Below are positions 6,962-61,164 of a DNA stretch of 61,693 bases, one piece after another (the stretch's first letter is position 1; each line of letters starts with the position of its first letter). The notes under the pieces are model-generated. The model did not search any database and had not been told where the DNA came from. It was given only the letters and a program-made list of their open reading frames with translations. The position numbers and the translations under genes were made by a program. Source of the DNA: Candidatus Saelkia tenebricola (GTDB lineage: Bacteria > Omnitrophota > Gorgyraeia > Kaelpiales > Kaelpiaceae); assembly GCA_030765145.1 (NCBI GenBank), contig JAVCDA010000060.1:1-61693 (forward strand). The letters run 5' to 3'.

Positions 6962-7015
6962 TTTGACAATTCTCAGGTCTTATGTACAATAAGCCTTTGT
7001 TATAAGGAGATAAAA

Positions 7016-7888: not shown

Positions 7889-7938
7889 GTTATATATAAC
7901 TACAATCGTGTTTTTTAGTTTTATCAGGAGGTAAATGT

Positions 7939-8028
7939 ATGCCTTGCGGAAGAAAAAGAAAAAAAAAGAGTATTAAAACTCATCAAAGAAAAAAAAGATT
8001 AAAAAGAGATAGGCATAAGAAGAAATAA
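7939..8028 (+). CDS. Unannotated 29-aa Lys/Arg-rich ORF, possible bS22-like (AURKAIP1/COX24-type) small ribosomal protein
   Basis: AGGAGG at 7926-7931 lies 7 nt before the ATG at 7939. The translation is MPCGRKRKKKSIKTHQRKKRLKRDRHKKK*. It is below the ORF-track size cutoff. Confidence 0.5.
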   Translation: MPCGRKRKKKSIKTHQRKKRLKRDRHKKK

Positions 8029-8043
8029 TAGTTTGCAGCTAAA

Positions 8044-36994: not shown

Positions 36995-38537
36995 AAGATT
37001 TTATATTACAACACCTTTATATTATGTTAATGGTTCACCGCACATAGGGCATTCGTATACCAATATCGCGGCTGATGTTCTTGCGCGTTATAGGAAAATG
37101 TGCGGGGATGATGTGTATTTTCTGACTGGGACAGATGAGCATGGTCAAAAGATTGAAAAAGCAGCAGCTGCTACAGGACATAGCGATGTTAAAAAATTTT
37201 GCGATTTTGTAGTTGATCAATTTGTTCAATTATGGAAGATGTTGAATATCTCCCACGACGATTTTATCCGTACAACAGATTCCAGGCATAAAGAAGCTGT
37301 AAAGAATATTCTTTCTATACTTTATGATAAGGGTGAAATTTATGAATCTAATTATGAAGGGTGGTATTGTACGCCTTGTGAGACATTTTGGATAGAATCA
37401 CAATTGGAAGAAAAATTGTGTCCTGATTGCCAAAGACCAGTAGAACATATAAGTGAGAAGAACTATTTTCTAAAAGTTTCAAAATACAGGGATTGGCTAA
37501 GAGATTACATTAAAAAAAATCCTGGATTTATTTTACCTCGGACACGTTTTAATGAAATAAGTTCTTTCTTAGAAACTCCTTTGAATGATTTATGTATTTC
37601 AAGGCCCAGTGCGCGAGTTTCCTGGGGGATACCTATTCCGTTTGATCAAAATTATGTAACATATGTTTGGTTTGAAGCATTACTTAATTACATAACTGCT
37701 CCCGGATTTTCAGAAGATAAAGATAAGTTTAATACGATATGGCCTGCTGATGTGCATTTTATGGCCAAAGATATTTTGCGTTATCATGCCGTGTATTGGC
37801 CGATTATGTTGCATATGCTGGGATTGGAACTTCCTAAAATAGTATTTTCTCACGGTTGGTGGCTTCTTGAGAAATCCGAAGGCTCTTTGGATAAAATGTC
37901 GAAGTCGAAGGGGAATGTTATTGATCCACGAGTTATAGCTGAACAGTATTCTGTAGATGCCTTAAGATATTTTTTGCTTAGAGAAGTTTCTTTTGGCTCA
38001 GACGGTTGTTTTTCAGAGCCGGCATTTATAAAAAGGATTAATTCAGATTTAGCTAATGATTTTGGTAATCTTATTTACAGAACTTTAAATATGCTCATAA
38101 AGTATTATCAAGGTAATATACCCTCAAGCGAGAGAGCTCGTGAAAATTGTGATGAAGTATTTAAAAAAAATGTTCAAGAATTAGATGAAAAAGTTGCTAG
38201 AGCTTTTGGTGTTTTAGATTATCAAACGGTGCTGATTGAGATCTGGGAATTAATTAAAAGTGCTAATAAATATATCGAAAATAAAGCTCCCTGGAAGCTG
38301 CAGAATGAAAATAAAGAAGAGCTTGATTTTGTAATGTATAATTTATCAGAAGTTTTAAGGATTATACTTCTTGCTCTTGCTCCTTTTATCCCGGATTCTG
38401 CTCAGAAAGCCTGGAGGTTGTTAGGATATAAAGACCAAATCCAGTCTCATAGCTACAAAGAAGTATCTCATTGGGGGGGTGTATCTTTTAATCAAAAGGT
38501 TGATAAGGGGGAGCCTCTCTTCCCAAGGATTGAGTAG
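36984..38537 (+). CDS. metG: Methionyl-tRNA synthetase
   Basis: HIGH motif (GSPHIGHSYT), zinc knuckle (CTPCE..CPDC), KMSKS motif (DKMSKSKGN). Confidence 0.95.
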   Translation: MVSKRFYITTPLYYVNGSPHIGHSYTNIAADVLARYRKMCGDDVYFLTGTDEHGQKIEKAAAATGHSDVKKFCDFVVDQFVQLWKMLNISHDDFIRTTDSRHKEAVKNILSILYDKGEIYESNYEGWYCTPCETFWIESQLEEKLCPDCQRPVEHISEKNYFLKVSKYRDWLRDYIKKNPGFILPRTRFNEISSFLETPLNDLCISRPSARVSWGIPIPFDQNYVTYVWFEALLNYITAPGFSEDKDKFNTIWPADVHFMAKDILRYHAVYWPIMLHMLGLELPKIVFSHGWWLLEKSEGSLDKMSKSKGNVIDPRVIAEQYSVDALRYFLLREVSFGSDGCFSEPAFIKRINSDLANDFGNLIYRTLNMLIKYYQGNIPSSERARENCDEVFKKNVQELDEKVARAFGVLDYQTVLIEIWELIKSANKYIENKAPWKLQNENKEELDFVMYNLSEVLRIILLALAPFIPDSAQKAWRLLGYKDQIQSHSYKEVSHWGGVSFNQKVDKGEPLFPRIE

Positions 38538-38538
38538 A

Positions 38539-39915
38539 ATGTATCTTATTGATACTCATTGTCATCTCTGGCATCCGGAATTTCATTCCGACTTAAAAAA
38601 TGTTCTTAAAAGTTCACGGAATTCAGGTGTTGATTATTTTATAAATATTGGAGTTGATGTTAAAACATCTAAAGAAGCGGTTAAGATGGCTAAGAAAAAT
38701 AAAGGTATTTTTGCCGGAGTTGGGTATCATCCTCATTATGCAAAGGATTTTAGAGAATCTGATGGTAGTCAGTTAAAGAAGCTATTGAGTGCCAGAAGAG
38801 TAGTTGCTTTTGGTGAAGTGGGGTTAGATTTTTATCGTCAAATATCCAACAAGAAGACTCAAATCATGGTTTTGGATGAGTTGTTATCTATTTGGTGTAA
38901 TACTAAATTGCCGATTGTAGTTCATAATAGAGATGCTCATAATGAAATTCTTTCTGTTTTAAATAATATTAGGAAATTTAATCCTAAAATAGTAATGCAC
39001 TGTTTTTCAGGAGACAAAAATTTTTTAAGAGAGTGCCTTAACAGAGGTTACTATATTTCTTATGCAACAAATCTCACTTTCAATAAAGAACTTAAAGAAC
39101 TTATTAAATATACGCCTCTTGAGAAATTGCTGTTAGAGACAGATTCGCCTTATCTTTCACCTCAAACAAAAAGAGGAATTCGTAATGAGCCCTTAAATAT
39201 TAAAGAGTCTATAGCTGTTGCGGTAGCTATAAAAGGCGTAGGGGAGGAAGATATTGTTCGTTCTCTGGCTTTGAATGCAAAGGTAGTGTTTAATGTAGGG
39301 CATGTTTCTATTAATCCGAGGATAGTTTATAAATATAAGGGAGGGCTTTATATTAATTTAACAAATGAATGCAGCAATGAATGTGTGTTTTGTACAATCG
39401 GTAAAGGAGATTATTTTGCCGGGTATAATTTAAGATTAAATGCTTCTGCGAGCATAAGAGAGGTATTGAAGGCAGTGAGCAAAGAAAAAGGGTATCAAGA
39501 AGTGAGTTTTTGCGGTTTTGGGGAACCGTTTTGCAGATTTAAAGAAATGACTAAAATTGCGCGTATTTTGAAAATGAGGGGGTATGAAATTAGAGTAGTT
39601 ACTAATGGGTGTGGAAATTTAATTCAAGGTAAGAATGTTTTACCCCTGCTTAAAGGGATAGTGGATAAAATATCTGTCAGTTTGAATGTAGTAGAAAAAG
39701 ATAAGTACAATGTAATATGTAAGCCTAAGTTAGAAGGAGATGTTTTTTCTGAGATTTTGAACTTTATACGGGAGGCGAAGAAATATATACCTCAGGTAGA
39801 AATCACATTTTTAAATTTTTCTGATTTAGATCTTCAAAAATGCAAAGAAATTGCTCAAAGTCTGGAAGTTGATTATAAAATAAGAGAATACAACATAACA
39901 AAAAATACAGATTAA
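38539..39915 (+). CDS. TatD-family metal-dependent hydrolase fused to a C-terminal radical SAM domain
   Basis: The TatD half has LIDTHCHL, GEVGLDF, VVHNRDAH, HCFSG, ETDSPYL. The C-terminal half has NLTNECSNECVFC (CX3CX2C) and FCGFGEP. I chose the ATG at 38539, right after the metG stop, over the track start at 38479. Confidence 0.85.
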   Translation: MYLIDTHCHLWHPEFHSDLKNVLKSSRNSGVDYFINIGVDVKTSKEAVKMAKKNKGIFAGVGYHPHYAKDFRESDGSQLKKLLSARRVVAFGEVGLDFYRQISNKKTQIMVLDELLSIWCNTKLPIVVHNRDAHNEILSVLNNIRKFNPKIVMHCFSGDKNFLRECLNRGYYISYATNLTFNKELKELIKYTPLEKLLLETDSPYLSPQTKRGIRNEPLNIKESIAVAVAIKGVGEEDIVRSLALNAKVVFNVGHVSINPRIVYKYKGGLYINLTNECSNECVFCTIGKGDYFAGYNLRLNASASIREVLKAVSKEKGYQEVSFCGFGEPFCRFKEMTKIARILKMRGYEIRVVTNGCGNLIQGKNVLPLLKGIVDKISVSLNVVEKDKYNVICKPKLEGDVFSEILNFIREAKKYIPQVEITFLNFSDLDLQKCKEIAQSLEVDYKIREYNITKNTD

Positions 39916-44007: not shown

Positions 44008-44433
44008 TTGATAAGAGAAATTATATCGCATTCAGAAGAGGAAACTTTTGAGATAGGTAATAATTTATCCAAAATATTATCACCTGGTGATGTGGTTGGA
44101 TTTAAGGGGGGTTTAGGTGCCGGAAAAACTATTTTAATCAAAGGTATTCTTGAAGGTTTGGGATATGATTCCAGAAATGTTGTAAGCGCTTCTTTTGTTA
44201 TTGCCCAAGAGTACAAGGTGAAATATCCGGTTGTGCATATAGACCTTTATAGATTTGAAAATAATGAAGAGATACATTATATAGACTGGGATTCTTATGT
44301 TTCTTTAGACAAATTGGTTCTTATAGAATGGTCTGAAAAAGTTAAAGATTTTTTAAATTTTTCTTTAAAGATTGATATTAACTTTATTTCTCAAAATGAA
44401 AGAGAAATAAAATTTGATACAAAAATTATTTAA
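44008..44433 (+). CDS. tsaE: tRNA t6A37 biosynthesis ATPase TsaE
   Basis: SEEETFEIGNNLSKIL.PGDVVGFKGGLGAGKTILIKGI and HIDLYR. Confidence 0.85.
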   Translation: MIREIISHSEEETFEIGNNLSKILSPGDVVGFKGGLGAGKTILIKGILEGLGYDSRNVVSASFVIAQEYKVKYPVVHIDLYRFENNEEIHYIDWDSYVSLDKLVLIEWSEKVKDFLNFSLKIDINFISQNEREIKFDTKII

Positions 44434-44569: not shown

Positions 44570-46183
44570 GTGAAAATTTCTAAATACCATTTTGTTTTAT
44601 TTTTATTAGTTTTATTATATGGAGTTGTCAATTGGACCGTTCTTAAACAGGATAATGTTCCTTTCTGCTATGATGAGGGTGGAATATATGAAATGAGTAG
44701 GATATATTATCACCATTTAATAGAAAACTTTACATGGGATTTCAAGGATTTTTTTCATCGTTATTGGTCGACTTCTAATTTTTATCCGCCTGTGTATATG
44801 TTATCTCATTTACCGTTGTTTTTATTATTTGGGAAAAGTCAGGATATATCAACTATGACCAATATAATTTTCTTAGCCATTTTGCTTTTCTCAATATATG
44901 GTATTGGAAAGAAGATTAAAGATGAACAAACTGGTTTTTTTGCTGCTGTTTTTGTTTCTACATTTCCAGCTATATTTGGATTTTCCCGGACAGATTTCCC
45001 TATACTTGCTTTAACTTCATTAGTTGTTCTAAGTCTTTATTTTCTTTTAAAAACAGAGTGTTTTACCGACAAAAAATATATAATTTTGTTTGGTATAAGT
45101 ATGGGATTAGGTGAACTTATCAAGCTTACATATTTTATGTATATACTTGTTCCATTAATAGTATATCTGGTTATATATAAAAGTAATTTAACAAAAGAGA
45201 AGATTGTTAAATTATTTTTTTCATTAAGCATATGTTTGCTTATTGTGTCTAGTTGGTTTGTGCCGAATCTAATTTCAAATACTTTTATAGCAGAAAAACA
45301 CAGACTTATAGGGCCTAAGATTGGTGCGATTGCGGAAGAATTTACTTTAAGTTATTTAAATTTAATTTATAAAATGGTGCATCCAGTTTATTTTTTTTTA
45401 TTAAGCATATGCATTCTATTAATCATATTTTTAAAAGTTAGATATAAATATTTCTTATTTTTAGGTTTTGTTTTTCCGCTGTTGGTTTTTTCGTTTTTCT
45501 ATTCTATAGAATCTCGATATGTATTTCCGATATTACCATTTGGAGGGCTTATTATTGCATCTGTTATAGGGAGTCTAAGATTATTGAGGATGAGAAGGAT
45601 TATTTATTATACTATTTTGGTTTTTGGTTTAATTGAATTTTTAATTTTGACATTTAAAACAGATATCCATGACAAATTTACGCAGGAACAATATATTCAA
45701 AGAAGAGAAGTAGGAGTACTTTTTAGCTCCCAAGTTAATTGGCCAATAGAAGAAGTTTTAGATCTTTTGAATGATTATAAATTGGTTTACAAGGAGAGAA
45801 ACAAGCTTGCAGAAATAATTGTTTTAGGTGAAGGACCTTTTCTTTCTGCTCTTTCTTACAAAGCACGTTTACCTGCTAAAATTGGTAAAATTGAAAAAGC
45901 ACCGTATAGTTTTATTTTATCTTTGATGTATCCTTTTAGGATGGTTAGGACAGACATAAAAAATTCTGAATATATAATGGTAGAAAAGGAAGCAATTGAA
46001 CATATTCCAAGAGGTTGCTTAGGAACTTTCAAGCGTTTACAGGAGCAGTTTAATAAGAAGAAAAGTATTTATGATATATTAGGAACAGTTTATTTTAATA
46101 ATAAAAATTTCGTAATATATATCAATAAAAATTTATATAAAATTATCCAAGAGAATAAAAGAGTTAAAAATATTGTAAAGTAG
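44570..46183 (+). CDS. Polytopic membrane glycosyltransferase-like protein (GT39/ArnT/PMT_2-like)
   Basis: About 11 TM segments with an acidic first loop (YDEGGIYE) and a large C-terminal soluble domain. GTG start. The call rests on topology and pattern only. Confidence 0.4.
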   Translation: MKISKYHFVLFLLVLLYGVVNWTVLKQDNVPFCYDEGGIYEMSRIYYHHLIENFTWDFKDFFHRYWSTSNFYPPVYMLSHLPLFLLFGKSQDISTMTNIIFLAILLFSIYGIGKKIKDEQTGFFAAVFVSTFPAIFGFSRTDFPILALTSLVVLSLYFLLKTECFTDKKYIILFGISMGLGELIKLTYFMYILVPLIVYLVIYKSNLTKEKIVKLFFSLSICLLIVSSWFVPNLISNTFIAEKHRLIGPKIGAIAEEFTLSYLNLIYKMVHPVYFFLLSICILLIIFLKVRYKYFLFLGFVFPLLVFSFFYSIESRYVFPILPFGGLIIASVIGSLRLLRMRRIIYYTILVFGLIEFLILTFKTDIHDKFTQEQYIQRREVGVLFSSQVNWPIEEVLDLLNDYKLVYKERNKLAEIIVLGEGPFLSALSYKARLPAKIGKIEKAPYSFILSLMYPFRMVRTDIKNSEYIMVEKEAIEHIPRGCLGTFKRLQEQFNKKKSIYDILGTVYFNNKNFVIYINKNLYKIIQENKRVKNIVK

Positions 46184-46311: not shown

Positions 46312-46968
46312 ATGACGATTTTAATTAAGATTGGTGGAAGCCTATTTAAGAAAAGCCCTACTGTTTTATCAAAATTATGCAAAATTATCTATAAATTATC
46401 CAAAGAGTATAAAATCATTGTAATACCAGGGGGGGGAGGATTAGCTGACCATATTAGAATATTGCAACGAAAATTTGAATTTTCTGATAATAAATCTCAC
46501 TGGATGGCAATTATGGCTATGGATATTAATGGAATGCTAATTAGCGAAGAGAATAAGAATTTTGAATTAGTTAGAACAATCCCAGAGTGTAAAAGGAGCT
46601 TAAACAAAAAAAATATTCCAATATTTTTACCATATAATTTTCTTAAAAAAATAAATTCTCTTCCTGAAAATTGGGAGGTAACTTCGGATTCAATTGCATT
46701 AGTTATATCCCATTTTCTGGATACTGATTATATAATTCTTTTAAAAGATGTGAATGGGATTTATGGAAGCCTTACTAAAAAAAAGATCATTAAGGAGGTT
46801 TCTCTTTCAAAAATTAAGCATTTAAAGTCTACTTGCATAGATAGTTATCTACCAAGTTTAGTTAAAAAATATAAAAGGGAAGTTTATATTGTTTCTGGTC
46901 TATATCCTGAAAGAATTAAAAAAATATTAAAAGGTGAAAAGACCTTGTATACTAAAGTTATTTCGTGA
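46312..46968 (+). CDS. Amino-acid-kinase-fold small kinase (MfnE-like / archaeal COG2054-type)
   Basis: ILIKIGGSLF.., IIVIPGGGGLADHIR, HWMAIMAMDINGML, VTSDSIALVIS, LLKDVNGIY. It is first in a four-gene overlapping block ending with mfnB. Confidence 0.55.
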   Translation: MTILIKIGGSLFKKSPTVLSKLCKIIYKLSKEYKIIVIPGGGGLADHIRILQRKFEFSDNKSHWMAIMAMDINGMLISEENKNFELVRTIPECKRSLNKKNIPIFLPYNFLKKINSLPENWEVTSDSIALVISHFLDTDYIILLKDVNGIYGSLTKKKIIKEVSLSKIKHLKSTCIDSYLPSLVKKYKREVYIVSGLYPERIKKILKGEKTLYTKVIS

Positions 46969-47804
46969 AGTTCAATTTATTTAAATTTTATAGACTTGAT
47001 TTTTGTTTGCGTAATTTAGGATTGGGAATTATTGGAATAGTTAGTGCAGATAATTTTTTAAATTTTAAACTTTCTTTTTTAGCATTATTAAATATATTGC
47101 TTATTCAAATGCATTCCTTTTCTATGAATAATTATTTTGATTTTAAAGTATGGGGTGAGGAAAATTATATTGGAAAGTTAATAAATAAGGGGGTTAATTC
47201 ATGTTTTTGTTTATTTCTAACAATTTTTCCGCTCGTTATTTTAATGATTATAATTACAAAATATAATTTTGCTGTATTTTTACTTTTTTTATATATTATT
47301 CTTTTTTATTTATATCAAGCCCCCTCTTTAAGATTAAAGAATCATTATTTATATTCTATTATCATTAATTCCATATGTTTAGGTTCTGTTCTGTATCTGT
47401 ACCCTCATGTTTTTTTAACTCGTAAATGTGGCTTTATTGCGACATATTTTACACTGATATTTTTCTTTTATTTGGGATTCCATGAATTAGTTCATCAAAT
47501 TGCCCATTTTGGGAAAGATAAGATATATTCTTTACCTCATAAGATAGGAATGGATAGAACTGTAATAGTTGTAAAAATCTTTTTGATTATTCCTATTCTA
47601 ATTGGAATTGGAAGTTTGATTTTAAATCCTCTTAAGTATTTAATTTTTGTCTTCACAATTTTATTTTCAATGTTTAGATTGTTCAGGCTTTCAAAAATGG
47701 TACCTACTCAGAAAAACTTTCTTATACTCAGGAATACCTGGCACAAATTTTATAGCTTTCACGAAGGGGTTTTGTATATAATGGCGTTACTCTTATGGAG
47801 ATAA
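46965..47804 (+). CDS. UbiA-superfamily-like polytopic membrane protein with degenerate Asp-rich motifs
   Basis: About 8-9 TM segments. LYQAPSLRLKN matches the conserved Y-x-x-P-L-R-L-K segment of UbiA prenyltransferases. Motif 1 reads NNYFDFKVWGEEN and motif 2 reads HELVHQIAHFGKDKIYSLPHKIG. Confidence 0.45.
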   Translation: MKFNLFKFYRLDFCLRNLGLGIIGIVSADNFLNFKLSFLALLNILLIQMHSFSMNNYFDFKVWGEENYIGKLINKGVNSCFCLFLTIFPLVILMIIITKYNFAVFLLFLYIILFYLYQAPSLRLKNHYLYSIIINSICLGSVLYLYPHVFLTRKCGFIATYFTLIFFFYLGFHELVHQIAHFGKDKIYSLPHKIGMDRTVIVVKIFLIIPILIGIGSLILNPLKYLIFVFTILFSMFRLFRLSKMVPTQKNFLILRNTWHKFYSFHEGVLYIMALLLWR

Positions 47805-48529
47805 TTCCTGTTGTAGATATTAAAGGAGGAGATGTTGTTCAGGCTATAAGAGGTCAAAGAGACAAGTATCTGCCTGTGCAGAATTCAAAATTAGTGAAAT
47901 CCAGCGATCCTTTAAAAGTTGCGGAAGCGTTTATTCAGAAATTTAATTTCAAAAAATTTTATATAGCTGATCTTGATTCTATCGAAAATAAAGGGAATAA
48001 TTTTAGCGTAATAGAAAAGTTGAAAAGGGAATTGGGAATAAAAATGATGGTTGATATTGGTATAAAAGATAAAGATGATTTAGATAAAAATGTGATAAAG
48101 CATATAGATTGGTTGATATTAGGTACAGAGACATTAAGTTCCTTGGATACAGTTGATTATGTTATGAAACTGAAAAATAGCAGTAGAATAACAGCGAGTA
48201 TAGACTTAAAAGGTAGGGAATTGCAAGCTAAGTATAGAAATTTTGCAAATCCTAGGCAAGCAATTAATAAATTAAACGGATTAGGAGTTGAAAATTTTAT
48301 TATTTTAGATCTTTCATGGATTGGTACTTTGAAAGGTCCTTCTATAGCATTAAAGGAATTAATAGAAAATTTTAAAGACAAAAATTTAGTGATATTTACT
48401 GGTGGAGGTATCTCATCTGTAGATGAAGTCAAAAAGTTAAAAGAAATAGGAGTAAGCGGGGCATTAATAGGTACTGCATTCCATAGGGGGTTGATAAAAA
48501 AGGATGATATTTTTATAATAAACAGGTAA
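47795..48529 (+). CDS. HisA/HisF-like TIM barrel (MfnF-like / COG1411-type)
   Basis: IIPVVDIKGGDVVQAIRG, FYIADLDSIENKG, ILDLSWIGTLKG, FTGGGISSVDEV..L...GVSGALIGTAFH follows the HisA-type phosphate-binding pattern. Confidence 0.55.
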   Translation: MEIIPVVDIKGGDVVQAIRGQRDKYLPVQNSKLVKSSDPLKVAEAFIQKFNFKKFYIADLDSIENKGNNFSVIEKLKRELGIKMMVDIGIKDKDDLDKNVIKHIDWLILGTETLSSLDTVDYVMKLKNSSRITASIDLKGRELQAKYRNFANPRQAINKLNGLGVENFIILDLSWIGTLKGPSIALKELIENFKDKNLVIFTGGGISSVDEVKKLKEIGVSGALIGTAFHRGLIKKDDIFIINR

Positions 48530-48537
48530 AAAAGCAA

Positions 48538-49251
48538 ATGAAAGCGTTAATTACAGTTATTAACCAAGAGGAAGCAAGGTGCGTTGTAAAAGAGGGTTGT
48601 GATATTTTAGATATTAAAAATCCAGTCGAAGGTTCTTTAGGTGCAAATTATCCATGGGTTATAAAAGAAATAGTGGAAATTGTCCCTCAAGAAATAGAGA
48701 TAAGTATTGCAATCGGAGATGTGCCTAATCTACCGGGGACTGTTTCTATGGCGGTGCTAGGAGCATTGCAGTTTAAACCCGACTATATTAAAGTAGGGTT
48801 GAAAGGTACTAAAACAAAAAGTGAAGCTGTTGAATTGATGAAAAAAGTAGTGCGGACAAATAGATTATCAGGAGTAGGAGCTAAAATAGTTGCTGCTTGT
48901 TATGCAGATTATCATAAGTCTGGTTCTGTAAATCTATCGTATCTTCCAGAAATAGTTTCAGAATCCGGAGCTAATATTGCAATGATTGATACTTTGACAA
49001 AGAGAGATAAAAATCTGTTAGATTTTATTTCAAAAGATGAATTAAAAAAAGTTGTAAAAATATGTCATGAGAAAGGATTAAAAATTGCTCTAGCAGGCTC
49101 CTTGAATGAAGAACATTTAGAGATGATATATCATATGGGTGTTGATATATTTGGGGTGCGAGGTGCTGTATGTTCAGGAGGGGATAGAAAATCCGAGATG
49201 AAAGTTGAACTTGTAAGGGAATTATATAGCAATATCAGACAATTAGATTAA
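48538..49251 (+). CDS. mfnB: (5-formylfuran-3-yl)methyl phosphate synthase-like (MfnB / DUF556)
   Basis: CDILDIKNPVEGSLGANYPWVIKE, PDYIKVGL, IAMIDT, ALAGSL, DIFGVRGAVC. Positions 25/27/85/151 are D/K/K/D, the residues I recall as essential in M. jannaschii MfnB. Confidence 0.75.
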   Translation: MKALITVINQEEARCVVKEGCDILDIKNPVEGSLGANYPWVIKEIVEIVPQEIEISIAIGDVPNLPGTVSMAVLGALQFKPDYIKVGLKGTKTKSEAVELMKKVVRTNRLSGVGAKIVAACYADYHKSGSVNLSYLPEIVSESGANIAMIDTLTKRDKNLLDFISKDELKKVVKICHEKGLKIALAGSLNEEHLEMIYHMGVDIFGVRGAVCSGGDRKSEMKVELVRELYSNIRQLD

Positions 49252-49348: not shown

Positions 49349-51145
49349 ATGGCTGGAATTGCAGGGGTAGTTTCCAAGAATACAATAAAGGAACCAGCAA
49401 TAGTTGAATCAATGCTAAGTATCCTGAAACATAGGGGGGCTTGTTGTAAGGGTGCTTTTATTAATGATAAAGTTTGTATTGGTTCCCAATCGATTGAGAG
49501 AAACGTGTTTTATAATAAAGGTAGAACGATATGCCTTTTTGTTGATGGAATAATATACAATAGCGTTGAATTAAAAAAGATGATTCCTGTCCAAAGTCTT
49601 TACTCAGACTGCGAAGAAGCGATATTAATTAATTTATATGAAAAATATGGAGTAAAAGGTTTTGAGCTTATTAACGGGGATTTTGTTTTAGTTATCTGGG
49701 ATTCTATTAAGAAGAAGCTGGTGATGGCAAAATATCTCAGTATCGATAAAAATATTTATTATTATTTAAGTAAAGATAGTTTAATTTTTTCCTCAGAAAT
49801 AAAAGCCTTATTAATTCATCCTGAAGTTAAAAAAGACCTAGATATTGAGTCCATAAATAATTTTCTTACTTTTAGACATATACCTTCGCCGTATACTATA
49901 TTCAAAAATATTGAAAGGTTGAATCCAGCCTCTGCAATCATTTATGATAATAATCAATTGCAAAAAGAGAAACTTTGTTATTTTAAAATAAAACCAATTT
50001 ATAATAAATCGGAAGATTATTTACTTAAAGAGTTGTTTATCAATTTAGAAGATGCAGTATTAAAGAGGTTGAATAAAGTAAAAGAGGCTGGTCTTTTTCT
50101 TTCGGGAGGGTTAGATTCTTCAACGTTACTTTATTTTCTCAGCCAAAATTTTAAAGATCCTGTAAAAACATATACTATATCGTTATTGAGAGACGGAATT
50201 TTTGCAAAAGGAGTTTCAGAATATTTTAATTCTCAGCATATAGAACGTGAAGTTTCTGCAAAAGATTTGATAAGTATTCTTCCAAAAGCATTATGGCATT
50301 TCGAGTATCCTGTTAATGGGCCTGATTCTTTCTTATATTATTTACCTAAGATTTCAAAAGGTCAGAAACATATTTTTTGGGGACGGGGAGCAGAAGAAGT
50401 GTTCTATGGTCGAGATGATTACGTAGCTTTAAATGTAATTATGAAATTTAGACAAGTTATTCCTCGAAAATTATGGGAGTTATTCTCACGGTTTTCTCCG
50501 CAAGTCCCAAACAAAAACAAATTGTATAAATTTTTTAATATAATTTCGGCTAAGGATGCTTATGATATTTATATTGCTTTTAGGGAAGTTTTAACGGAAA
50601 TTGAAAAAAAAGAACTTTTAAATAAAGAGATATTTAAATTTAATCCTAAATCAAGATTGATACCTTATAAAAAATTCGCTAGAGATATTCTTCAACAATA
50701 TAGCTACCTGGTTCTCGTAAATGGTTTTTGGAGCGATACATTTTTGAATATGGGCCAGGAAGTTCTGGATCCTTTTATGGATAAAGATTTTATCAGTTAT
50801 TGTTATAGCATTCCTTCTGAATTAAAAGTTCGTAATGGTCAACCAAGATATTTGTTAAAAAAAATGATGCGTAATAAACTCCCCGAGTTTATTTTAAAGA
50901 GGAAGAAAGATAATTGGCATGCACAAACTGAGTTTGAGATTAATAAAGAAAAAGACAAATATTATCATATTATAAATAGGCTCAGAAAAAGAGGTATTTT
51001 AAAGTTCGATATATCTAATTTTTTACAGAAAAATAAATTTAAATCAGATGAAAAATTCTGGGCATTATTAAGTTTAGAAATTTTATTAGAAATATTTTTG
51101 GATCAAAACGGAGCTGAAGAACCTCCTGCCATTGATAAATTCTAG
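49349..51145 (+). CDS. Asparagine synthetase B-like adenylating enzyme lacking the glutaminase nucleophile
   Basis: The N-terminus is MAGIAG (canonical MCGI), HRGACC replaces HRGPD, and VDGIIYN replaces NGEIYN. The PP-loop LSGGLDSS is intact at 50102-50122. Confidence 0.7.
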   Translation: MAGIAGVVSKNTIKEPAIVESMLSILKHRGACCKGAFINDKVCIGSQSIERNVFYNKGRTICLFVDGIIYNSVELKKMIPVQSLYSDCEEAILINLYEKYGVKGFELINGDFVLVIWDSIKKKLVMAKYLSIDKNIYYYLSKDSLIFSSEIKALLIHPEVKKDLDIESINNFLTFRHIPSPYTIFKNIERLNPASAIIYDNNQLQKEKLCYFKIKPIYNKSEDYLLKELFINLEDAVLKRLNKVKEAGLFLSGGLDSSTLLYFLSQNFKDPVKTYTISLLRDGIFAKGVSEYFNSQHIEREVSAKDLISILPKALWHFEYPVNGPDSFLYYLPKISKGQKHIFWGRGAEEVFYGRDDYVALNVIMKFRQVIPRKLWELFSRFSPQVPNKNKLYKFFNIISAKDAYDIYIAFREVLTEIEKKELLNKEIFKFNPKSRLIPYKKFARDILQQYSYLVLVNGFWSDTFLNMGQEVLDPFMDKDFISYCYSIPSELKVRNGQPRYLLKKMMRNKLPEFILKRKKDNWHAQTEFEINKEKDKYYHIINRLRKRGILKFDISNFLQKNKFKSDEKFWALLSLEILLEIFLDQNGAEEPPAIDKF

Positions 51146-51185: not shown

Positions 51186-52523
51186 TTATATACAGTTAAA
51201 AATAAATTTATTTTGATTCATATTGTCTTTTTGTTTGATTATTCCTATACTATGTGTCCAAAAAGGAAGATAGTTCAAATCCGTGGTTATTTGATATAGA
51301 GATATATAAATCAAATTTTTATCTAAGTTTTTATAATAGAATTTTGTTGAATTTAAAAAAAATCTCAAGAAGTCCATTGTAAAGTAAGTATATTTTAAAA
51401 GATTCCAGATGTTGCCGTTTTCAAGTGCAGAATTTATTTTTTTGAGGGTTTTTAGGTCGATTACTTCTTTAATTAATTTATCTTCTATTTTAAACGGAAC
51501 GGTGATAATTTGAGATCCGGTTGATATGTTTTTTCTGAATTTGATTAGAAATTTATGCAGATTTATTTTTAACTTTTCGAACTCAAAAAAATAACCTTCT
51601 TTGCAGGTTGTGTTTTTAGATTCGACTATCTTTTTTATTATATCGGAATAAGTAAAATATCTTTTTTGAGGTATTTCTAGTCTTCCAAATGGGCTTAAAG
51701 GAACCAAAAACAGTCCTTTTATAAAATCATTATTTGTTATTAAAAATGGTATCATTTTTTCAATCTCATTTTCATTTATATTGTCCATTAATACAAACGC
51801 TAAAAAAGTAAATAGTTTATTATTTTTTAGATTTTGTAAAGCTTTTGTTTTGAGGTTGTAACTATTCTCGCTTTCAAGCTTTTGATATGTGTGTTGAAAG
51901 CCGTTGAAAGATAGGAATACTTCTTTTAATCCTGCGGTTTTTAGTCTTTTAGTATATTCTGAGTCAGCTAATTTTAGACCATTTGTAAATAGTGTAGGTA
52001 TATTTCCGGAATCCTTTACTAGTTTAATCATTTCAGGTAGATCATTTCTTACGGTAGGTTCTAATCCAAAAAACATAATTTTTTTGTTTTTACCTGCTTT
52101 GGAAATTATGTATTTAATATCATCCATATTCATCTCTTCTGGTTTAAGAGTGTCTTGAGCAAAACATACTTTGCATTGAGCATTGCATTTATTTGTTGTC
52201 ATTACATAAATCATATTGCTGTAAGTTTTTATAAATTTCCAGTCACTTTCTTTAGGTTCGAAAGCTCTACTAAAAGTAGAAAAAGCTGTTTTTTTTCGCG
52301 TTAGCATCATTTTTTTAAAAAAATGATGACTGTTTTCGAACAGTGTTTCATACCAGATGCCATCGATTTTTTTTCTTATAAAAATTTTATTTTTATTTTC
52401 TATTATTTTTATCTCGGTTTTTTTAAGCCAGGAGAATATGTGGGTTATATCAGACCCGGATATTCTATCTGTTTTAAAGGATATTGGTGATTCTTTAAGA
52501 GGTATGATTTTTTGATCCTGCAT
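51186..52523 (-). CDS. Radical SAM protein, paralog of the 58238/59788 family but without N-terminal zinc ribbon
   Basis: TTNKCNAQCKVCF (CX3CX2C), FFGLEPTVRNDLPEMIKLVKDSGNIPTLFTNGLKLAD, FLSFNGF. The same block order is seen in 58238..59632. Its start overlaps the upstream rSAM stop by 29 nt. Confidence 0.8.
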   Translation of the reverse strand: MQDQKIIPLKESPISFKTDRISGSDITHIFSWLKKTEIKIIENKNKIFIRKKIDGIWYETLFENSHHFFKKMMLTRKKTAFSTFSRAFEPKESDWKFIKTYSNMIYVMTTNKCNAQCKVCFAQDTLKPEEMNMDDIKYIISKAGKNKKIMFFGLEPTVRNDLPEMIKLVKDSGNIPTLFTNGLKLADSEYTKRLKTAGLKEVFLSFNGFQHTYQKLESENSYNLKTKALQNLKNNKLFTFLAFVLMDNINENEIEKMIPFLITNNDFIKGLFLVPLSPFGRLEIPQKRYFTYSDIIKKIVESKNTTCKEGYFFEFEKLKINLHKFLIKFRKNISTGSQIITVPFKIEDKLIKEVIDLKTLKKINSALENGNIWNLLKYTYFTMDFLRFFLNSTKFYYKNLDKNLIYISLYQITTDLNYLPFWTHSIGIIKQKDNMNQNKFIFNCI

Positions 52524-53634
52524 TGTAATTTTGTTTTAAAATATTTTTAGTGAATGCCATACGAAATCTTGATAGATTTGAAAAGATGTTTTCATTAGAA
52601 AGATAACCTTCACCCATCATGCAGTTCTTTTTGCAATACTTTCTGCTAAATCTGGATTCAACATAAGGAGGTGATTCCCATATATCTCTTGGAGTATTTA
52701 GCTTTAGGTTGCCCAAGCTATGGGGGTATATGTCGTTGGCTAGAAAACAAGGTAGAATTTCTCCATTTGCAGATATGCATAATTGATCATATGGGATATT
52801 ACAATATATGTTTTTAAAATCCAGTTCTGAAGATAAAAAGTATTTTCTAATTAACTCTAAGTTTTGCAGAGAGTTTAAAATAGGATAACCTTGTTTTTTT
52901 AGGTTAACAAGTTCGTTGATTATATTGTCAATTGTGTCTTTTTCTTTTGGCCATACCTCATCTTTTATTTTTTCATTTTTTATGAATTCTGTTCTTACTT
53001 CTACAAATCTTATCCCATTGAGCCTGTTTTCATGGGTGAATTTGACTAGTTCAGGTAATTCTTTTAAATTGTAACTATTTATTACTGTATTTAAAGTGAT
53101 GTTTATATTTTTATTTTTTAGTGATTTGACTGCAAACATTACTCTCTCAAATTGTCCTTTTTGCCTTAATGTATCATGGGTTTCTTGCTGTATACCCTCT
53201 AATGATAAGATGATTTTTGATAAGCGAGAATCAATGATATTTTTAATTTTTATTTCGTCAAGCAGCGAACAATTGGTTGTGATATCAGTAATTATGTCAA
53301 TATTATTTGCGAATTTAATTATTTCAAAGATATCATCTCTTAAAAATGGTTCACCTCCACATAAATTTAAATAAAAGATACCTAGCCATTTTTTAAGTTC
53401 GAGAATTATTTTTTTTAGCTCTTTTGTGGTAAGTTCATCGAATGTTTTTTCATGGGTAAGGCTGCAGTATTTACAATTTGAATTGCAGGCATTTGTTAGA
53501 TAAAGTAGTACAATTATTGGTTTGCAAAAATTAGTATCAAAACGTTTATCTATATTTCTAAACAAGCAATGGATGAGACCGTTTAGTGAAAATTTGATAT
53601 ATTTAGTATCCATGGTTGATTTTTGTTGAAGCAA
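52495..53634 (-). CDS. Radical SAM protein with C-terminal SPASM/twitch-like Cys motif
   Basis: LTNACNSNCKYCS (CX3CX2C), LCGGEPFLRDD, and C-terminal CNIPYDQLCISANGEILPC (CX12GX4C) plus CKKNC. Confidence 0.8.
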   Translation of the reverse strand: MLQQKSTMDTKYIKFSLNGLIHCLFRNIDKRFDTNFCKPIIVLLYLTNACNSNCKYCSLTHEKTFDELTTKELKKIILELKKWLGIFYLNLCGGEPFLRDDIFEIIKFANNIDIITDITTNCSLLDEIKIKNIIDSRLSKIILSLEGIQQETHDTLRQKGQFERVMFAVKSLKNKNINITLNTVINSYNLKELPELVKFTHENRLNGIRFVEVRTEFIKNEKIKDEVWPKEKDTIDNIINELVNLKKQGYPILNSLQNLELIRKYFLSSELDFKNIYCNIPYDQLCISANGEILPCFLANDIYPHSLGNLKLNTPRDIWESPPYVESRFSRKYCKKNCMMGEGYLSNENIFSNLSRFRMAFTKNILKQNYNAGSKNHTS

Positions 53635-53767: not shown

Positions 53768-54466
53768 ATGATTTTACTTGGAATTGACACTTCATCAGAT
53801 TGGCTGCATGTTGTAGCAGGGGAGGATGATAAGGTTATAAACTCTATCTCTATATGTAGGCCGAAACAGCATGTTTCTATATTGCATAGTAGTATAGATG
53901 AGGTTTTAAAAAAAACAGGTTTTAATATTAAGGATGTTGATGTTTTTGTCGTTGTAAAAGGACCTGGTTCTTTTACGGGGATTAGGATTGCAGTTACAAC
54001 TGTTAAGGGATTTGCATATGCTTTGGATAAAAGAGTTGTTTCTCTATCCAGTTTAGATTTATTGGCTCAAAATGCTTTGGACTCTGAAGAACGGTTGATT
54101 GTGCCTTTAATAGATGCCAAGAGGGGACAGGTATATGCTGCTTATTACACCAATGATAATAATATAGCCATAGGTGTTAAAGATAGTATGCTTGTTAAAA
54201 TAGGAGATGTTTTAGATGCAATTGATGAGCCTGTAGTTCTATTAGGAGATGGAGTGGAAGCTTATAAAAGAGAGATTGAAGAGATTAGAGTTCATAAAAA
54301 AATATCTATTTTAAATGAGGATTATTGGATATTAAGGAATGAAAATATTATAAAGTTGGGATATAGGAAATATCAGGATAAAGGTGGTGAGAATATATTT
54401 GATTTGAAGCCACTTTACCTTTATCCTAAAGAGTGCACCATTAGAAAAAACTTACCTCAGAGATAA
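53768..54466 (+). CDS. tsaB: tRNA t6A37 biosynthesis protein TsaB
   Basis: ILLGIDTSSD.., VVVKGPGSFTGIRIAVTTVKGFA, DAKRGQVY. Confidence 0.85.
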   Translation: MILLGIDTSSDWLHVVAGEDDKVINSISICRPKQHVSILHSSIDEVLKKTGFNIKDVDVFVVVKGPGSFTGIRIAVTTVKGFAYALDKRVVSLSSLDLLAQNALDSEERLIVPLIDAKRGQVYAAYYTNDNNIAIGVKDSMLVKIGDVLDAIDEPVVLLGDGVEAYKREIEEIRVHKKISILNEDYWILRNENIIKLGYRKYQDKGGENIFDLKPLYLYPKECTIRKNLPQR

Positions 54467-58236: not shown

Positions 58237-58728
58237 AATGGATAAACTATTAATGTTTGAAGTTGAAAATGTAATGGAAACGTTAGTAAAGACCGGAATT
58301 TCATTCTGCCCGGTGTGTGAAAGAACAATTTCTGCTCAGTTAATTAACCGGCAAGGCTATGTATATGAACAGAAGGAATGCTCCTGGTGTAATGAAATGT
58401 TTGAGTTGTTGTTAAAGAAAGCTTCTTTTACCCATCGTTGTGGGTTCGACAAAATGCCTAATAATTGGCCGCAACTTAATGTTCAAATTGGAGATATTCC
58501 TGGTGAAGAAAGTGATATAAAAAACTTCTCAGAGGTTTTATATGTTCTGTTAAATTTGACTCAAAGATGCAATTCTTTTTGCCGGTTTTGTTTCGAAGCT
58601 AATGAAGGTCCTCGGCCGGATATGGATATAGAGTTCATCAAAACTACTTTAAAGAAATTCAGAAATAAAATAATAGTTCTCTTTGGCGGTGAGCCGACAA
58701 TGAGGGAAGATTTGCCAGAGATCATCCA
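58225..58728 (+). repeat. Direct repeat copy 1 (RBS + first 491 nt of rSAM copy A)
   Basis: Hand alignment to 61190..61693: no indels and about 39 mismatches in the 491 coding nt, including the shared AAGGAGATATA RBS. Confidence 0.85.
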
Positions 58729-59632
58729 GATGGTCTTAAAATCTAAGAACATTCCACTTTTATATACTAATGGAGTAAGATTAGCAGATAGAAGTTATTT
58801 AAGGTTGCTTAAACAATCAGGTGTAAGAGTGGTATGTTTATCATTGGATGCAGTTGATTTTGAAGTCTATAAAAATATAAGAAGAACTTCAGAAGAAGTA
58901 ATTAAAGCAAAATTTAAGGCATTAGAAAATTTAAGAAAAGAAAAAACCCAGGTTGTTCTACAAACAACGATTATTAAAGGAGTTAATGATTTTCATATCC
59001 AAGAAATTGTAGAATATATGAAAATAAATCCCTATATTTATGGATTATGGCTAAGGCCTCTATACCTATTGGGGAAAGAACCTTATGCAGATTTTGACAG
59101 AACACATCTCATGTCGCGTGATGAAGTAGCAGATTTAGTAGAAGAAAATTTAAGATTGGATAAAGGTTATTTTGATTTATGGAATGATTTAAAAAGAAAT
59201 TTATTGAATTATATTTTGAAGTTAATGCCAAACATAAAGATATCTGCAATCGAATTGGATAAAATTTATATGCTAAGAGAAAATGGGCGATTTATTCCTT
59301 TACTAGATAAAAAAGAGTTAGAATATATCAATCATGCTCTTGTTTCTAACCGGTTTTGGGCTTTGCTTAAGCCATCTTTAATGGTTAAAATTTTACCTTA
59401 TATTATACGAGGAATTGTTGGTTTAAGTGGTATACGTTTCAATTTTATAGAAAAGTATATGTATAAAAAAGGTATCTGTAAATTTTCTATTCGAATGTTG
59501 GATGGGGTTATGAGATATCCGTACTCATTTTTTCCTGCCTCCATGGATGGTCCGGTGTATATAGAGGTATTGCCAACTGAGGATGAGAATAACCCCTATA
59601 AAATAATTGCAAAACGTAAAGAATCCACATAG
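58238..59632 (+). CDS. Radical SAM protein with N-terminal 4-Cys zinc-ribbon/rubredoxin-like knuckle (MJ0619/Tes-like family, copy A)
   Basis: C24-x2-C27 ... C48-x2-C51 (FCPVCERTISAQLINRQGYVYEQKECSWC). CX3CX2C at C111/C115/C118 (RCNSFCRFC). LFGGEPTMREDLPEII, LYTNGVRLAD, LSLDAVD, GVNDFHIQEIVEY. Confidence 0.8.
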   Translation: MDKLLMFEVENVMETLVKTGISFCPVCERTISAQLINRQGYVYEQKECSWCNEMFELLLKKASFTHRCGFDKMPNNWPQLNVQIGDIPGEESDIKNFSEVLYVLLNLTQRCNSFCRFCFEANEGPRPDMDIEFIKTTLKKFRNKIIVLFGGEPTMREDLPEIIQMVLKSKNIPLLYTNGVRLADRSYLRLLKQSGVRVVCLSLDAVDFEVYKNIRRTSEEVIKAKFKALENLRKEKTQVVLQTTIIKGVNDFHIQEIVEYMKINPYIYGLWLRPLYLLGKEPYADFDRTHLMSRDEVADLVEENLRLDKGYFDLWNDLKRNLLNYILKLMPNIKISAIELDKIYMLRENGRFIPLLDKKELEYINHALVSNRFWALLKPSLMVKILPYIIRGIVGLSGIRFNFIEKYMYKKGICKFSIRMLDGVMRYPYSFFPASMDGPVYIEVLPTEDENNPYKIIAKRKEST

Positions 59633-59787: not shown

Positions 59788-61164
59788 ATGAAAGAATCAA
59801 ATTTAGTAGAGCTTAATTCTGAAATCATATCTATGCCAGAAACTGTATCGGTAGAAGAGCTGGTGGTAGAAGAAGGTTTATCTCCTTGTCCATCTTGTGA
59901 AAAACTTGTGCCCGCAAAAACAGTTGTAAGGGATGGGTATACATACATAGTTAAACATTGTGTATTTGAAAGAAAATTTTTCAATGTTTTCTTAGGAAAA
60001 GGCTGGTATGACAAAAGCTATAAAGATATTTCACTTCCCAATAGTTGGCCGCGTTGCGAGGTTCACATTGGTCAAAAAGAAATGAGTGAGAAAAATGTTC
60101 TGAATATAGGAGAGGTTAGTTTTGTTTTACTGACTATTACCAAAAAGTGTAATATACATTGTAAAATTTGTTACGACAAACTTCTCGCTGATAGAATTGA
60201 TATGAGTTTATCGCATATTGAAGATAAGCTTAGATTTTTTAAAAATAGAACAGTTATTTTATTCGGCGGGGAACCTACAGTTAGGGAAGATTTACCAGAA
60301 ATTATTAAATTGGTAAAGTTATCAAATAATTATCCTGTGCTTTTTACAAATGGTATTAAGCTTACAAGTAGAGATTACCTAAACTGTTTAATAAAAAATG
60401 GGTTATGGGGTGTATGTTTATCCTTTGATGGTTTTGACGCTCATATTTATGCGGAGCTTCGCGGTTTAGACGAAAAAGTTTATCAGCAGAAATTAGAAGC
60501 ACTTGAAAATTTGAAAAAAACAAATATTCCTGTAGTTATTCATTCTACAATCGTTAAAGAGGTTAATGAACATGAAGTTGCAAAGATTTTAGACTACGCA
60601 GCCCAAAATGATTTTGTGTCAGCAGTGTGGTTTAGAACACTTTATCTGTCCGGTGAAGAAAAATTGTCAAATTTTGATAAAACTAATTTAATTTCTGAAA
60701 AAGAAATGGTAAATATGATATGCAGTCATTTAGACATTGATAAAGAATATTTCTATCTTTGGGATGAGGTAAAGCGTGGTCTTGTTAAATGGATTACAAA
60801 GCGATTCCCGAAATTTAAAATTTCTGTGTTTAGGCTAGGTAGAATTTATTTAATTAGGAAAAAGGGCAAATTCCATCCTGTTTTAACGATTCGACAGTTA
60901 AAAGATATTAAAGTTGCGTTAGAAACCAATAGGTATTTTATTTTATTGAGTCCTTGTTTACTGAAGTGGTTTGTTAGATTGGCTGTCAATGGTTTTAGTA
61001 TTGCAAGGATTGAGAGAACCTTCTATAAGGAAGCAATGGTATTTAAAATTTGCCTGGAACAGCTTGGTCCTTATCCTAATATTATGTTTTCGAATCAACA
61101 TCCTATTACTTTGGTGGAATATAATCGTGGCAGGTTTTTTGCAGCTCAGAGCTACATAGATTAA
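59788..61164 (+). CDS. Radical SAM protein, divergent paralog of copy A (3-Cys N-terminal knuckle)
   Basis: CPSCEKLVPAKTVVRDGYTYIVKHC, KKCNIHCKIC, LFGGEPTVREDLPEIIKLV, LFTNGIKLTS, LSFDGFD. SD AAAGGAGG upstream. Confidence 0.8.
   Translation: MKESNLVELNSEIISMPETVSVEELVVEEGLSPCPSCEKLVPAKTVVRDGYTYIVKHCVFERKFFNVFLGKGWYDKSYKDISLPNSWPRCEVHIGQKEMSEKNVLNIGEVSFVLLTITKKCNIHCKICYDKLLADRIDMSLSHIEDKLRFFKNRTVILFGGEPTVREDLPEIIKLVKLSNNYPVLFTNGIKLTSRDYLNCLIKNGLWGVCLSFDGFDAHIYAELRGLDEKVYQQKLEALENLKKTNIPVVIHSTIVKEVNEHEVAKILDYAAQNDFVSAVWFRTLYLSGEEKLSNFDKTNLISEKEMVNMICSHLDIDKEYFYLWDEVKRGLVKWITKRFPKFKISVFRLGRIYLIRKKGKFHPVLTIRQLKDIKVALETNRYFILLSPCLLKWFVRLAVNGFSIARIERTFYKEAMVFKICLEQLGPYPNIMFSNQHPITLVEYNRGRFFAAQSYID

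Follow-up and report, generated by a model that had tools for sequence, protein, structure and literature searches.

The window analyzed here, a stretch of 61,693 nucleotides from Candidatus Saelkia tenebricola (contig JAVCDA010000060.1), carries at 46312-49251 one operon of four genuine genes. Three of them encode soluble proteins of families known from methanofuran synthesis, and the fourth encodes a divergent integral membrane protein of the UbiA superfamily. The explanation that best covers all our observations, and in which we have moderate confidence, is that a furan-methyl diphosphate would be passed by the UbiA-like enzyme to a membrane-held acceptor, so that the operon would serve an envelope modification and not a one-carbon (C1) cofactor. 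The four genes are as follows.

46312..46968, plus strand: gene 1, MfnE-type kinase (amino-acid-kinase fold)
46965..47804, plus strand: gene 2, divergent UbiA-superfamily integral membrane protein (fold model, sub-threshold Pfam match)
47795..48529, plus strand: gene 3, HisA/HisF-related TIM barrel of the MJ0703/Orf17 family (PF00977, TIGR00734)
48538..49251, plus strand: gene 4, MfnB (PF04476)

Genes 1 and 2 overlap by 4 nucleotides and genes 2 and 3 by 10 nucleotides, while a gap of 8 nucleotides separates genes 3 and 4. These open reading frame (ORF) coordinates agree with an earlier interpretation made from the letters alone (the sequence-only reading), which had described four closely packed plus-strand genes at this place. 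The same reading had listed a UbiA-like protein, an AsnB-like ligase and radical S-adenosylmethionine (SAM) enzymes as neighbors of the block. All of them are indeed present nearby, but the UbiA-like gene is gene 2 of the operon rather than a neighbor, and it is the operon's most diagnostic member. Our Pfam scans took in every plausible ORF of the window, and the NCBIfam scan covered 10 proteins around the block. The Pfam scans identified diderm housekeeping genes in the window, including those for LpxA, LpxC, LpxD, LpxI, BamA and a secretin. The MnmG/GidA protein of the window has its closest relative in an Omnitrophota single-cell genome (60% identity), which, together with the nearest homologues of other genes, suggests Omnitrophota; an exact 44-mer taken from the window had no match among the GTDB species genomes. 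A promoter and terminator scan gave results no better than shuffled sequence.

Gene 4 matched the Pfam family 4HFCP_synth (PF04476) with 247.5 bits against a cut-off of 22.4, and it gave a strong full-length match (212.8 bits) to the structure of M. jannaschii MJ1099 (4rc1). The motifs DILDIKNPVEGSLGA, YIKVGL and GVRGA were found in the protein, and D25, K27, K85, D151 and K155 are all present in it and invariant in 14 cassette MfnBs. This bears out the sequence-only reading, which had called the last gene MfnB/DUF556 on the basis of these motifs and of D25/K27/K85/D151. D25, K85 and D151 are reportedly catalytic residues (Wang et al. 2015). The Schiff base forms on K27 (PMC6604932), and a catalytic role is also described for K155 (PMC11365854). 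The scores for the NCBIfam equivalogs NF002573 (268.9 bits, cut-off 341) and NF002575 (250 bits, cut-off 304) are both below threshold, and so are those of the MfnB from the methanofuran cluster of Bathyarchaeota BA2 (298 and 279 bits), to which the window protein is 44% identical. Judging from its sequence, gene 4 is assigned as MfnB, the predicted (5-formylfuran-3-yl)methyl phosphate (4-HFC-P) synthase.

On a Streptomyces zaomyceticus plasmid, a homologue of MfnB with 46% identity was also found as the first gene of an operon (locus L044, NZ_CP108274.1, 110363-114625), where it is followed by genes for an aldehyde dehydrogenase, an alcohol dehydrogenase and a SAM methyltransferase. Matches of this kind were also seen on 11 Streptomyces and 2 Streptantibioticus plasmids. 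The plasmid enzyme presumably represents another non-C1 use, for a small furan carboxylate. Because MfnB occurs outside C1 metabolism on these plasmids, a non-cofactor use of furans would not be unique to the operon described here.

Gene 1 matched AA_kinase in Pfam (75.6 bits) and the PDB entry 7qrh (120 bits). Its best family is the NCBIfam model MfnE, NF040622, with 177.5 bits over positions 3-211 of 211, UMP kinase following at 49 bits; the earlier description of the first gene as an MfnE-like protein of the amino-acid-kinase fold thus holds. The score lies under the equivalog cut-off of 300. The kinase inside the mfnD-mfnF-mfnE cluster of BA2 reaches about the same value (181 bits), indicating that this cut-off shuts out genuine non-methanococcal MfnE proteins, and the window kinase is 38% identical to this BA2 kinase over its full length. 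Gene 1 is predicted to turn the furan-methyl phosphate into the diphosphate.

Gene 3 had been read as a HisA-like barrel of the MfnF family. The barrel part of this claim stood, with a match of 129 bits to Pfam His_biosynth (PF00977), but the assignment to MfnF did not, since the best NCBIfam model is TIGR00734 hisAF_rel (146 bits; cut-off 179.85), with HisA at 113 bits and HisF at 22. The BA2 barrel is also below the TIGR00734 cut-off (170 bits). The window protein has the conserved features D8, D59, D87, D137, D172 and a GGG phosphate loop. Beyond the cassette, its nearest homologues are 'HisA/HisF family' proteins of Bathyarchaeota, Asgard archaea and methanogens, together with a protein of the methylotroph Methylovirgula. 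In M. extorquens, the homologues of MfnB, MfnE and MfnF are Orf22, Orf21 and Orf9, and Orf17, encoded apart from these three, is the PF00977 protein and corresponds to MJ0703 of M. jannaschii (PMC8141765). Orf17 is needed for methylofuran; its mutant accumulates no detectable intermediate, and the authors assigned it to an early step of unknown nature (PMC8141765). We could thus rule out the barrel as MfnF: MfnF is the Hydantoinase_A-like protein NF040623, as seen in the BA2 cluster, and Orf9 is distinct from Orf17 (PMC8141765). An assignment of MfnF to DUF447 was dropped as well, since NCBIfam places MfnF in the Hydantoinase_A-like family NF040623.

In BA2 (locus L029), the barrel homologue adjoins MfnD-MfnF-MfnE, with MfnB a few kilobases off, and the MfnF of this cluster matched NF040623 with 277.6 bits (Pfam name Hydantoinase_A). 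The contig (LIHK01000023.1) thus holds a compact methanofuran cluster in the order MfnB ... MfnE-MfnF-MfnD, in which the MJ0703-type barrel is divergently adjacent and MfnB is separated from MfnE by an unannotated protein of 387 amino acids without family match. Because the barrel accompanies these two enzymes, MfnB and MfnE, whichever coupling enzyme is present, its role would lie in furan diphosphate formation and not in the tyramine/glutamate part of the pathway. It probably acts before the coupling step, in agreement with the early-step phenotype of orf17 (PMC8141765). Two barrel variants were seen among the other loci. In two related contigs (L005, 1524-2271, and L016, 828-1575), the barrel is split into two ORFs, for which a frameshift, a stop codon within the gene or a fault in the assembly could be responsible. 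The most divergent locus, of Deltaproteobacteria type (L024, 711-2075), encodes a barrel of 454 amino acids with about 220 extra C-terminal residues that match no family.

A rough neighbor-joining tree of the barrels, computed without support values, placed the window protein among archaeal members. The bacterial cassette copies formed one group and the nanohaloarchaeal copies another, the copies of Aenigmatarchaeota and of locus L022 stood beside canonical Bathyarchaeota proteins, and all cassette copies were closer to archaeal than to methylotroph members. This placement of the sequences suggests that the cassette may be of archaeal origin and may have moved between domains.

The UbiA-like protein encoded by gene 2 matched Pfam UbiA (PF01040) with only 28.6 bits, under the gathering cut-off of 34.2, although most of its homologues carry a precomputed PF01040 match. 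The family is rare: only 30 homologues were found in 5.8 billion clusters, and a profile search of 1.84 billion representatives gave 41 at E<1e-30 and 99 at E<1e-10. The protein had no match by sequence in the PDB and none in plasmids. An AlphaFold2 model built from 19 sequences reached a predicted local distance difference test score (pLDDT) of 91.7 and shows the all-helical membrane fold of UbiA prenyltransferases. Foldseek aligned it with digeranylgeranylglyceryl phosphate (DGGGP) synthase (7bpu), AfUbiA (4tq5) and the entry 4tq3 at template modeling (TM) scores of 0.77-0.78; a mycobacterial membrane phosphoribosyltransferase (8j8j) was a weaker fold match.

We then aligned the family against canonical UbiA sequences taken from the tail of the profile search. 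Where canonical enzymes have NxxxDxxxD, this family has N55xxxD59xxxW63, and the second motif, DxxDxxxD, is replaced by Q178xxH181xxxD185, so that N55, D59 and D185 are the only canonical residues left in the two aspartate-rich motifs. Residues E65, N67, E174 and H177 are additionally invariant, and the central RLK motif (R123, K125) is kept. Because the active-site motifs are altered yet strictly conserved within the family, the model and alignment point to a UbiA-fold enzyme that is not an ordinary prenyltransferase. We propose that it is the coupling enzyme in place of MfnF.

To see how the genes are distributed, we gathered 27 loci via the UbiA-like family. Analysis by tblastn and clustering reduced them to 21 non-redundant groups, to which the window adds one more. 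All 22 of these locus groups have the UbiA-like gene, 20 have the MfnE-type kinase, 16 the HisA/HisF barrel and 15 MfnB; nearly all missing genes belong to loci on contigs of a few kilobases. The sequence-only reading had proposed a check of gene-neighborhood conservation, and the UbiA-like gene was nearly always found with the same three genes. According to raw ORF calls, 13 of 19 groups have the kinase gene immediately 5' of the UbiA-like gene and in the same orientation, in most cases with an overlap; the number rises to 15 of 19 when a frameshift in the L012 kinase and a late ORF start in L021 are allowed for. The MfnE, barrel and MfnB of BA2 match nearly all cassette loci at 32-52% identity, the same range as that of the cassette members among themselves. 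Judged jointly with the furan transfer proposed below, it is somewhat better than an even call that the cassette is a conserved, horizontally spread four-gene unit of which the window holds one copy.

The bacterial hosts are Omnitrophota and metagenome-assembled genomes of Spirochaetia, Sumerlaeota and Deltaproteobacteria. The archaeal hosts belong to the DPANN, namely, Aenigmatarchaeota, Nanoanaerosalina and Ca. Nanohaloarchaeum antarcticus. Omnitrophota and DPANN are lineages that include very small or host-attached cells. Locus L021 is a 676-kb scaffold named NAR1_11, and the locus tags of Ca. Nanohaloarchaeum antarcticus R1 begin with the prefix of this name (PMC6642349). This organism is a fermentative symbiont without lipid and cofactor biosynthesis (PMC6642349, PMC11291902), and it has no mevalonate pathway (PMC6642349).

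The partners expected for a C1 cofactor were not found around the cassette. No member of the MfnA, MfnC, MfnD, MfnF, Fwd, Ftr, Mch, Mtd or Fae families was detected in the 61.7-kb window by the Pfam and NCBIfam scans. Likewise, Pfam revealed no pyridoxal phosphate-dependent decarboxylase or aminotransferase, ATP-grasp protein, Hydantoinase_A, formylmethanofuran dehydrogenase or tetrahydromethanopterin (H4MPT)-linked enzyme among the window ORFs. The MfnF family (NF040623/TIGR03123) had no match among the 10 proteins around the block, no PF01968 domain occurs in the window, and the MfnF and MfnD of BA2, used as tblastn queries, matched neither the window nor any of the cassette loci. These scans agree with the earlier statement that mfnA, mfnC, mfnD, formylmethanofuran dehydrogenase and H4MPT genes are missing from the 61 kb. 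The further suggestion that the product differs from classical methanofuran or methylofuran is strengthened by the recurrence of the cassette in 21 groups without MfnF or MfnD; we consider either classical cofactor unlikely as the product.

The cassette of the window sits inside a block of about 9.3 kb between tsaE and tsaB, along with the following genes.

44008..44433, plus strand: tsaE, left edge of the island (from its translation; the syntenic gene in locus L042 is annotated PF02367 TsaE)
44570..46183, plus strand: glycosyltransferase of the C fold (GT-C), PMT_2/ArnT-like, associated but not core (PMT_2 45.6 bits, cut-off 26.1)
49349..51145, plus strand: AsnB-like ATP-dependent amide synthetase, recurrent accessory gene (Asn_synthase 138.7 bits, GATase_7 57 bits)
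51186..52523, minus strand: Tes/GDGT-MAS- and TrsS-like radical SAM protein, accessory (Radical_SAM 61 bits)
52495..53634, minus strand: radical SAM/SPASM enzyme, accessory, overlapping the 51186-52523 gene (Radical_SAM 82 bits, SPASM 38.6 bits)
53768..54466, plus strand: putative tsaB-like gene, right edge of the island (our own reading of the translation)

The AlphaFold2 model of the GT-C protein was weak (pLDDT 59.7) and was used for the fold class only; all top Foldseek matches were GT-C enzymes, ArnT (5ezm) being first with a TM score of 0.44. When weaker thresholds or BLASTP are admitted, 8 of the 16 locus groups with usable flanks have a GT-C-like gene close to the cassette. A search with a custom hidden Markov model of six GT-C seeds added none to these, and large archaeal neighbors were tied to the PMT_2 protein of L022 by BLASTP. 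Homologues of the AsnB-like protein occur in 6 locus groups. The window protein starts with MAGIAGV and thus has an alanine at the position of the nucleophile cysteine, as does that of L013. Those of L014, L022 and L001 keep the cysteine (MxGICGI or MSAICGI); as it is not at position 2 in these sequences, N-terminal processing would be needed. The 51186-52523 radical SAM protein matched the NCBIfam models TrsS (129 bits) and Tes (114 bits), both far under their cut-offs, and has counterparts in L022 (62% identical) and L019 (38%). Homologues of the 52495-53634 enzyme were found in 6 locus groups, the L022 copy being 65% identical.

Among 123 non-core neighbors taken from 15 related loci, Radical_SAM was the most frequent family (13 members), followed by AsnB-type amidotransferases/synthetases (6-7), GT2 (4) and Wzx-type Polysacc_synt, PMT_2 and B12-binding radical SAM proteins (3 each). 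PaaK/CapK-like AMP-binding proteins are encoded near the cassette in L024, L001 and L012. Locus L022 has the same eight gene types as the window. Its radical SAM pair (4475-8058) is 62-65% identical to that of the window, but identity is as low as 37-50% for the four core genes, so that the accessory genes would have a different, more recent shared history. Locus L042 (JGI Ga0366834_1000016) is syntenic with the window at 33-46 kb over ten upstream genes, from a TonB receptor through tsaE and PMT_2, and continues, where the window has the cassette, with glycan genes for GT2, GT4 and epimerase proteins, indicating that the cassette sits in a variable envelope-glycan island. The GC content of the island is 0.282, compared to 0.34 in the flanks, but GC at third codon positions is the same in both (about 0.22), so there is no compositional sign of recent transfer.

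Taken together, these observations can be ordered into a pathway. From its family membership and intact catalytic residues, MfnB would convert two molecules of glyceraldehyde-3-phosphate to (5-formylfuran-3-yl)methyl phosphate. The MJ0703/Orf17-type barrel would carry out an early step that is also required in canonical methanofuran and methylofuran synthesis, and a further phosphorylation by the MfnE-type kinase would lead to a furan-methyl diphosphate, either F1-PP or the formyl precursor of F1-PP. In cofactor synthesis, MfnF joins the furan diphosphate to glutamyl-tyramine. Here, the UbiA-fold enzyme would take the place of MfnF, ionize the diphosphate and pass its furan-methyl group on to a nucleophile held in the membrane. 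The ionization of a diphosphate to a stabilized carbocation, by which UbiA enzymes work, suits the chemistry of a furan-methyl diphosphate, which resembles an allylic or benzylic one. Translational coupling of the kinase and UbiA-like genes would fit a pathway in which the product of the kinase is the substrate of the UbiA-like enzyme. By analogy, the acceptor would most likely be a polyprenyl phosphate, as for decaprenyl-phosphate phosphoribosyltransferase, or alternatively a lipid hydroxyl, as for DGGGP synthase. The radical SAM enzymes, AsnB-like synthetase, PaaK/CapK-like ligases and methyltransferases could tailor the furan group, and the GT-C transferases, Wzx flippases and GT2 enzymes could place it on the cell envelope. 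The product would thus be a membrane- or surface-bound furan compound instead of a soluble C1 carrier. The sequence-only reading had likewise expected a furan-methyl diphosphate to be built and then to alkylate a nucleophile; MfnB and the MfnE-type kinase support the first part, but the HisA-like barrel, which it took for the condensing enzyme, belongs to the wrong family.

We also put forward, more tentatively, a full scenario that we regard as possible but less than probable. The UbiA-fold protein would be a 'furan-methyl transferase' with a His/Gln metal site that loads an aminomethyl- or formyl-furan-methyl group onto a polyprenyl phosphate or a membrane lipid, and GT-C enzymes would draw on this lipid-linked donor to decorate the envelope of Omnitrophota and DPANN. 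The system would go back to the archaeal methanofuran pathway, MfnF/MfnD having given way to the membrane enzyme before the cassette crossed domains.

Several points weigh against a transfer of furan to the envelope. The second aspartate-rich motif, the Mg2+-diphosphate site, mostly consists of Gln and His by alignment, so that diphosphate ionization would not be guaranteed. No aminotransferase (MfnC) is conserved in the cassette, and the kinase substrate could for this reason be an aldehyde or an amine. The absence of C1 genes holds for the window, whole host genomes not having been searched for Fwd/Fhc or H4MPT genes. The GT-C gene of the window may be a resident, its link to the cassette being positional only, since L042 has a GT-C gene without the cassette. 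Lastly, gene assignments and linkage are observed, every chemical step after MfnB is deduced from the genes, and the acceptor is a guess by analogy.

Other explanations were weighed as well. The UbiA-like protein could be a conventional aromatic prenyltransferase, with the MfnB furan as acceptor and a polyprenyl diphosphate as donor, making a prenylated furan as a lipid or quinone-like carrier while the kinase is otherwise employed. Such an enzyme would agree with the closest folds, DGGGP synthase and AfUbiA (TM 0.77), which use prenyl diphosphates, with the retained RLK motif and with the Tes-like radical SAM proteins, acting on lipid tails, that accompany some loci. We nevertheless consider it unlikely: most loci show translational coupling of the kinase and UbiA-like genes, most of the five canonical acidic motif positions compared are lost or replaced (W63, Q178, H181), and the cassette occurs in Nanohaloarchaeota that have no mevalonate pathway, hence no prenyl diphosphates of their own (PMC6642349). 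Because Ca. Nha. antarcticus is without the mevalonate pathway and lipid synthesis, a prenyl-diphosphate donor is unlikely in this organism and a host-derived lipid acceptor is favored. Less probable again is a soluble or secreted furan metabolite, for which the UbiA-like protein, as a membrane-bound enzyme, would either cyclize or hydrolyze the furan diphosphate or, at the face of the membrane, alkylate some small nucleophile in solution. Some UbiA-superfamily members are cyclases and not transferases, the active-site motifs are strongly altered, and the Streptomyces plasmid MfnB stands beside an aldehyde dehydrogenase, an alcohol dehydrogenase and a methyltransferase, but the repeated GT-C, Wzx and GT2 neighborhood would be left unexplained.

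The two remaining alternatives concern the furan itself. Ordinary methanofuran or methylofuran synthesis, with mfnC, mfnD, mfnF, fwd/fhc and H4MPT genes elsewhere in the genome, strikes us as very unlikely. Methanofuran pathway genes are often dispersed in methanogens, and our negatives cover the window and the cassette loci, not full host genomes. In addition, MfnB, MfnE and the MJ0703/Orf17 barrel all belong to that pathway or are needed by it (PMC8141765). Against this stand the lack of any C1/H4MPT family in the 61.7-kb window and of MfnF or MfnD in any cassette locus, the tie of the cassette to a rare UbiA-like gene and envelope genes, and hosts that include DPANN with a reduced, fermentative and host-dependent metabolism (PMC6642349). 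Finally, the MfnB-like enzyme might make no furan at all and the cassette might build an unrelated phosphorylated compound, a notion that could draw on the NCBIfam equivalog scores, all of which are under their cut-offs. However, proteins of the genuine BA2 cluster fall under the same cut-offs (181, 170 and 298 bits), which shows that the cut-offs are strict and that low scores do not mean divergence. With 44% identity to a genuine-cluster MfnB, a full-length match to the MJ1099 structure (212.8 bits) and all five catalytic residues invariant, we regard this last notion as highly improbable.

To our knowledge, the furan chemistry of MfnB has until now been tied to the C1 carriers methanofuran and methylofuran. 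The soluble genes belong to known families; in the literature searched, we found no description of the cassette, i.e., of an MfnB-type trio combined with a divergent UbiA-fold enzyme, nor of its host range and envelope context, and this combination is new in that sense. If furan transfer by the UbiA-like enzyme is true, it would be a second biological use of furans, probably in envelope or lipid modification in little-known lineages, one of them co-culturable. The UbiA superfamily would gain a type of reaction and an active-site variant that are new to it, and the finding would narrow the function of the MJ0703/Orf17 barrel to a testable step before coupling, in the making of the furan diphosphate.

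The window holds a few other features outside the island. Two tandem plus-strand genes (58238-59632 and 59788-61164) encode radical SAM proteins with a Zn_ribbon_HMPTM domain, as in the Tes/GDGT-MAS (MJ0619) family. Together with the Tes/TrsS-like copy at 51186-52523 on the minus strand, three such genes lie within 10 kb, and they may bear on membrane-spanning lipid synthesis. An ORF of 478 amino acids at 38479-39915 encodes a TatD-type hydrolase fused to a radical SAM domain, a fusion also present in L042. At 4774-6396 on the minus strand, a spermidine synthase gene lies between two S-adenosylmethionine decarboxylase paralogues.

Compared to known systems, the cassette resembles several without coinciding with any. 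The pathway of ArnT and undecaprenyl-phosphate-4-amino-4-deoxy-L-arabinose (L-Ara4N) differs in that no Arn pathway is present here, the GT-C model is of low confidence and a GT-C gene is also found in L042 without the cassette. It is similar in that ArnT is the best fold match of the upstream PMT_2 GT-C protein, in a host with LpxA, LpxC, LpxD and LpxI, and a furan with an aminomethyl group would be a cationic substituent, as Ara4N is. DGGGP synthase and AfUbiA are the best structural matches of the UbiA-like protein (TM 0.77 over the whole protein), with agreement in size, helix count and RLK motif; sequence identity, however, is 13-16%, and both aspartate-rich motifs are altered in the cassette protein.

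The decaprenyl-phosphate 5-phosphoribosyltransferase Rv3806c offers a parallel for the proposed transfer. It uses a small hydrophilic diphosphate donor, phosphoribosyl pyrophosphate, and a polyprenyl-phosphate acceptor, and its product feeds GT-C arabinosyltransferases. The UbiA fold is shared (8j8j is among the matches), and GT-C genes are frequent near the cassette. Unlike the cassette protein, Rv3806c keeps the canonical aspartate-rich motifs, the donor in the cassette would be a furan-methyl diphosphate and not a sugar, and the fold likeness is below that to DGGGP synthase. With methanofuran and methylofuran core synthesis, finally, the differences lie in the coupling step and in the setting: the cassette loci are without the Hydantoinase_A-like MfnF and the ATP-grasp MfnD and have a UbiA-fold enzyme instead, their hosts are neither methanogens nor methylotrophs, and their neighbors are envelope and radical SAM genes. 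Nevertheless, three of the four genes are common to both, at identities of 38-46%, and in BA2 the same trio clusters with MfnF and MfnD.

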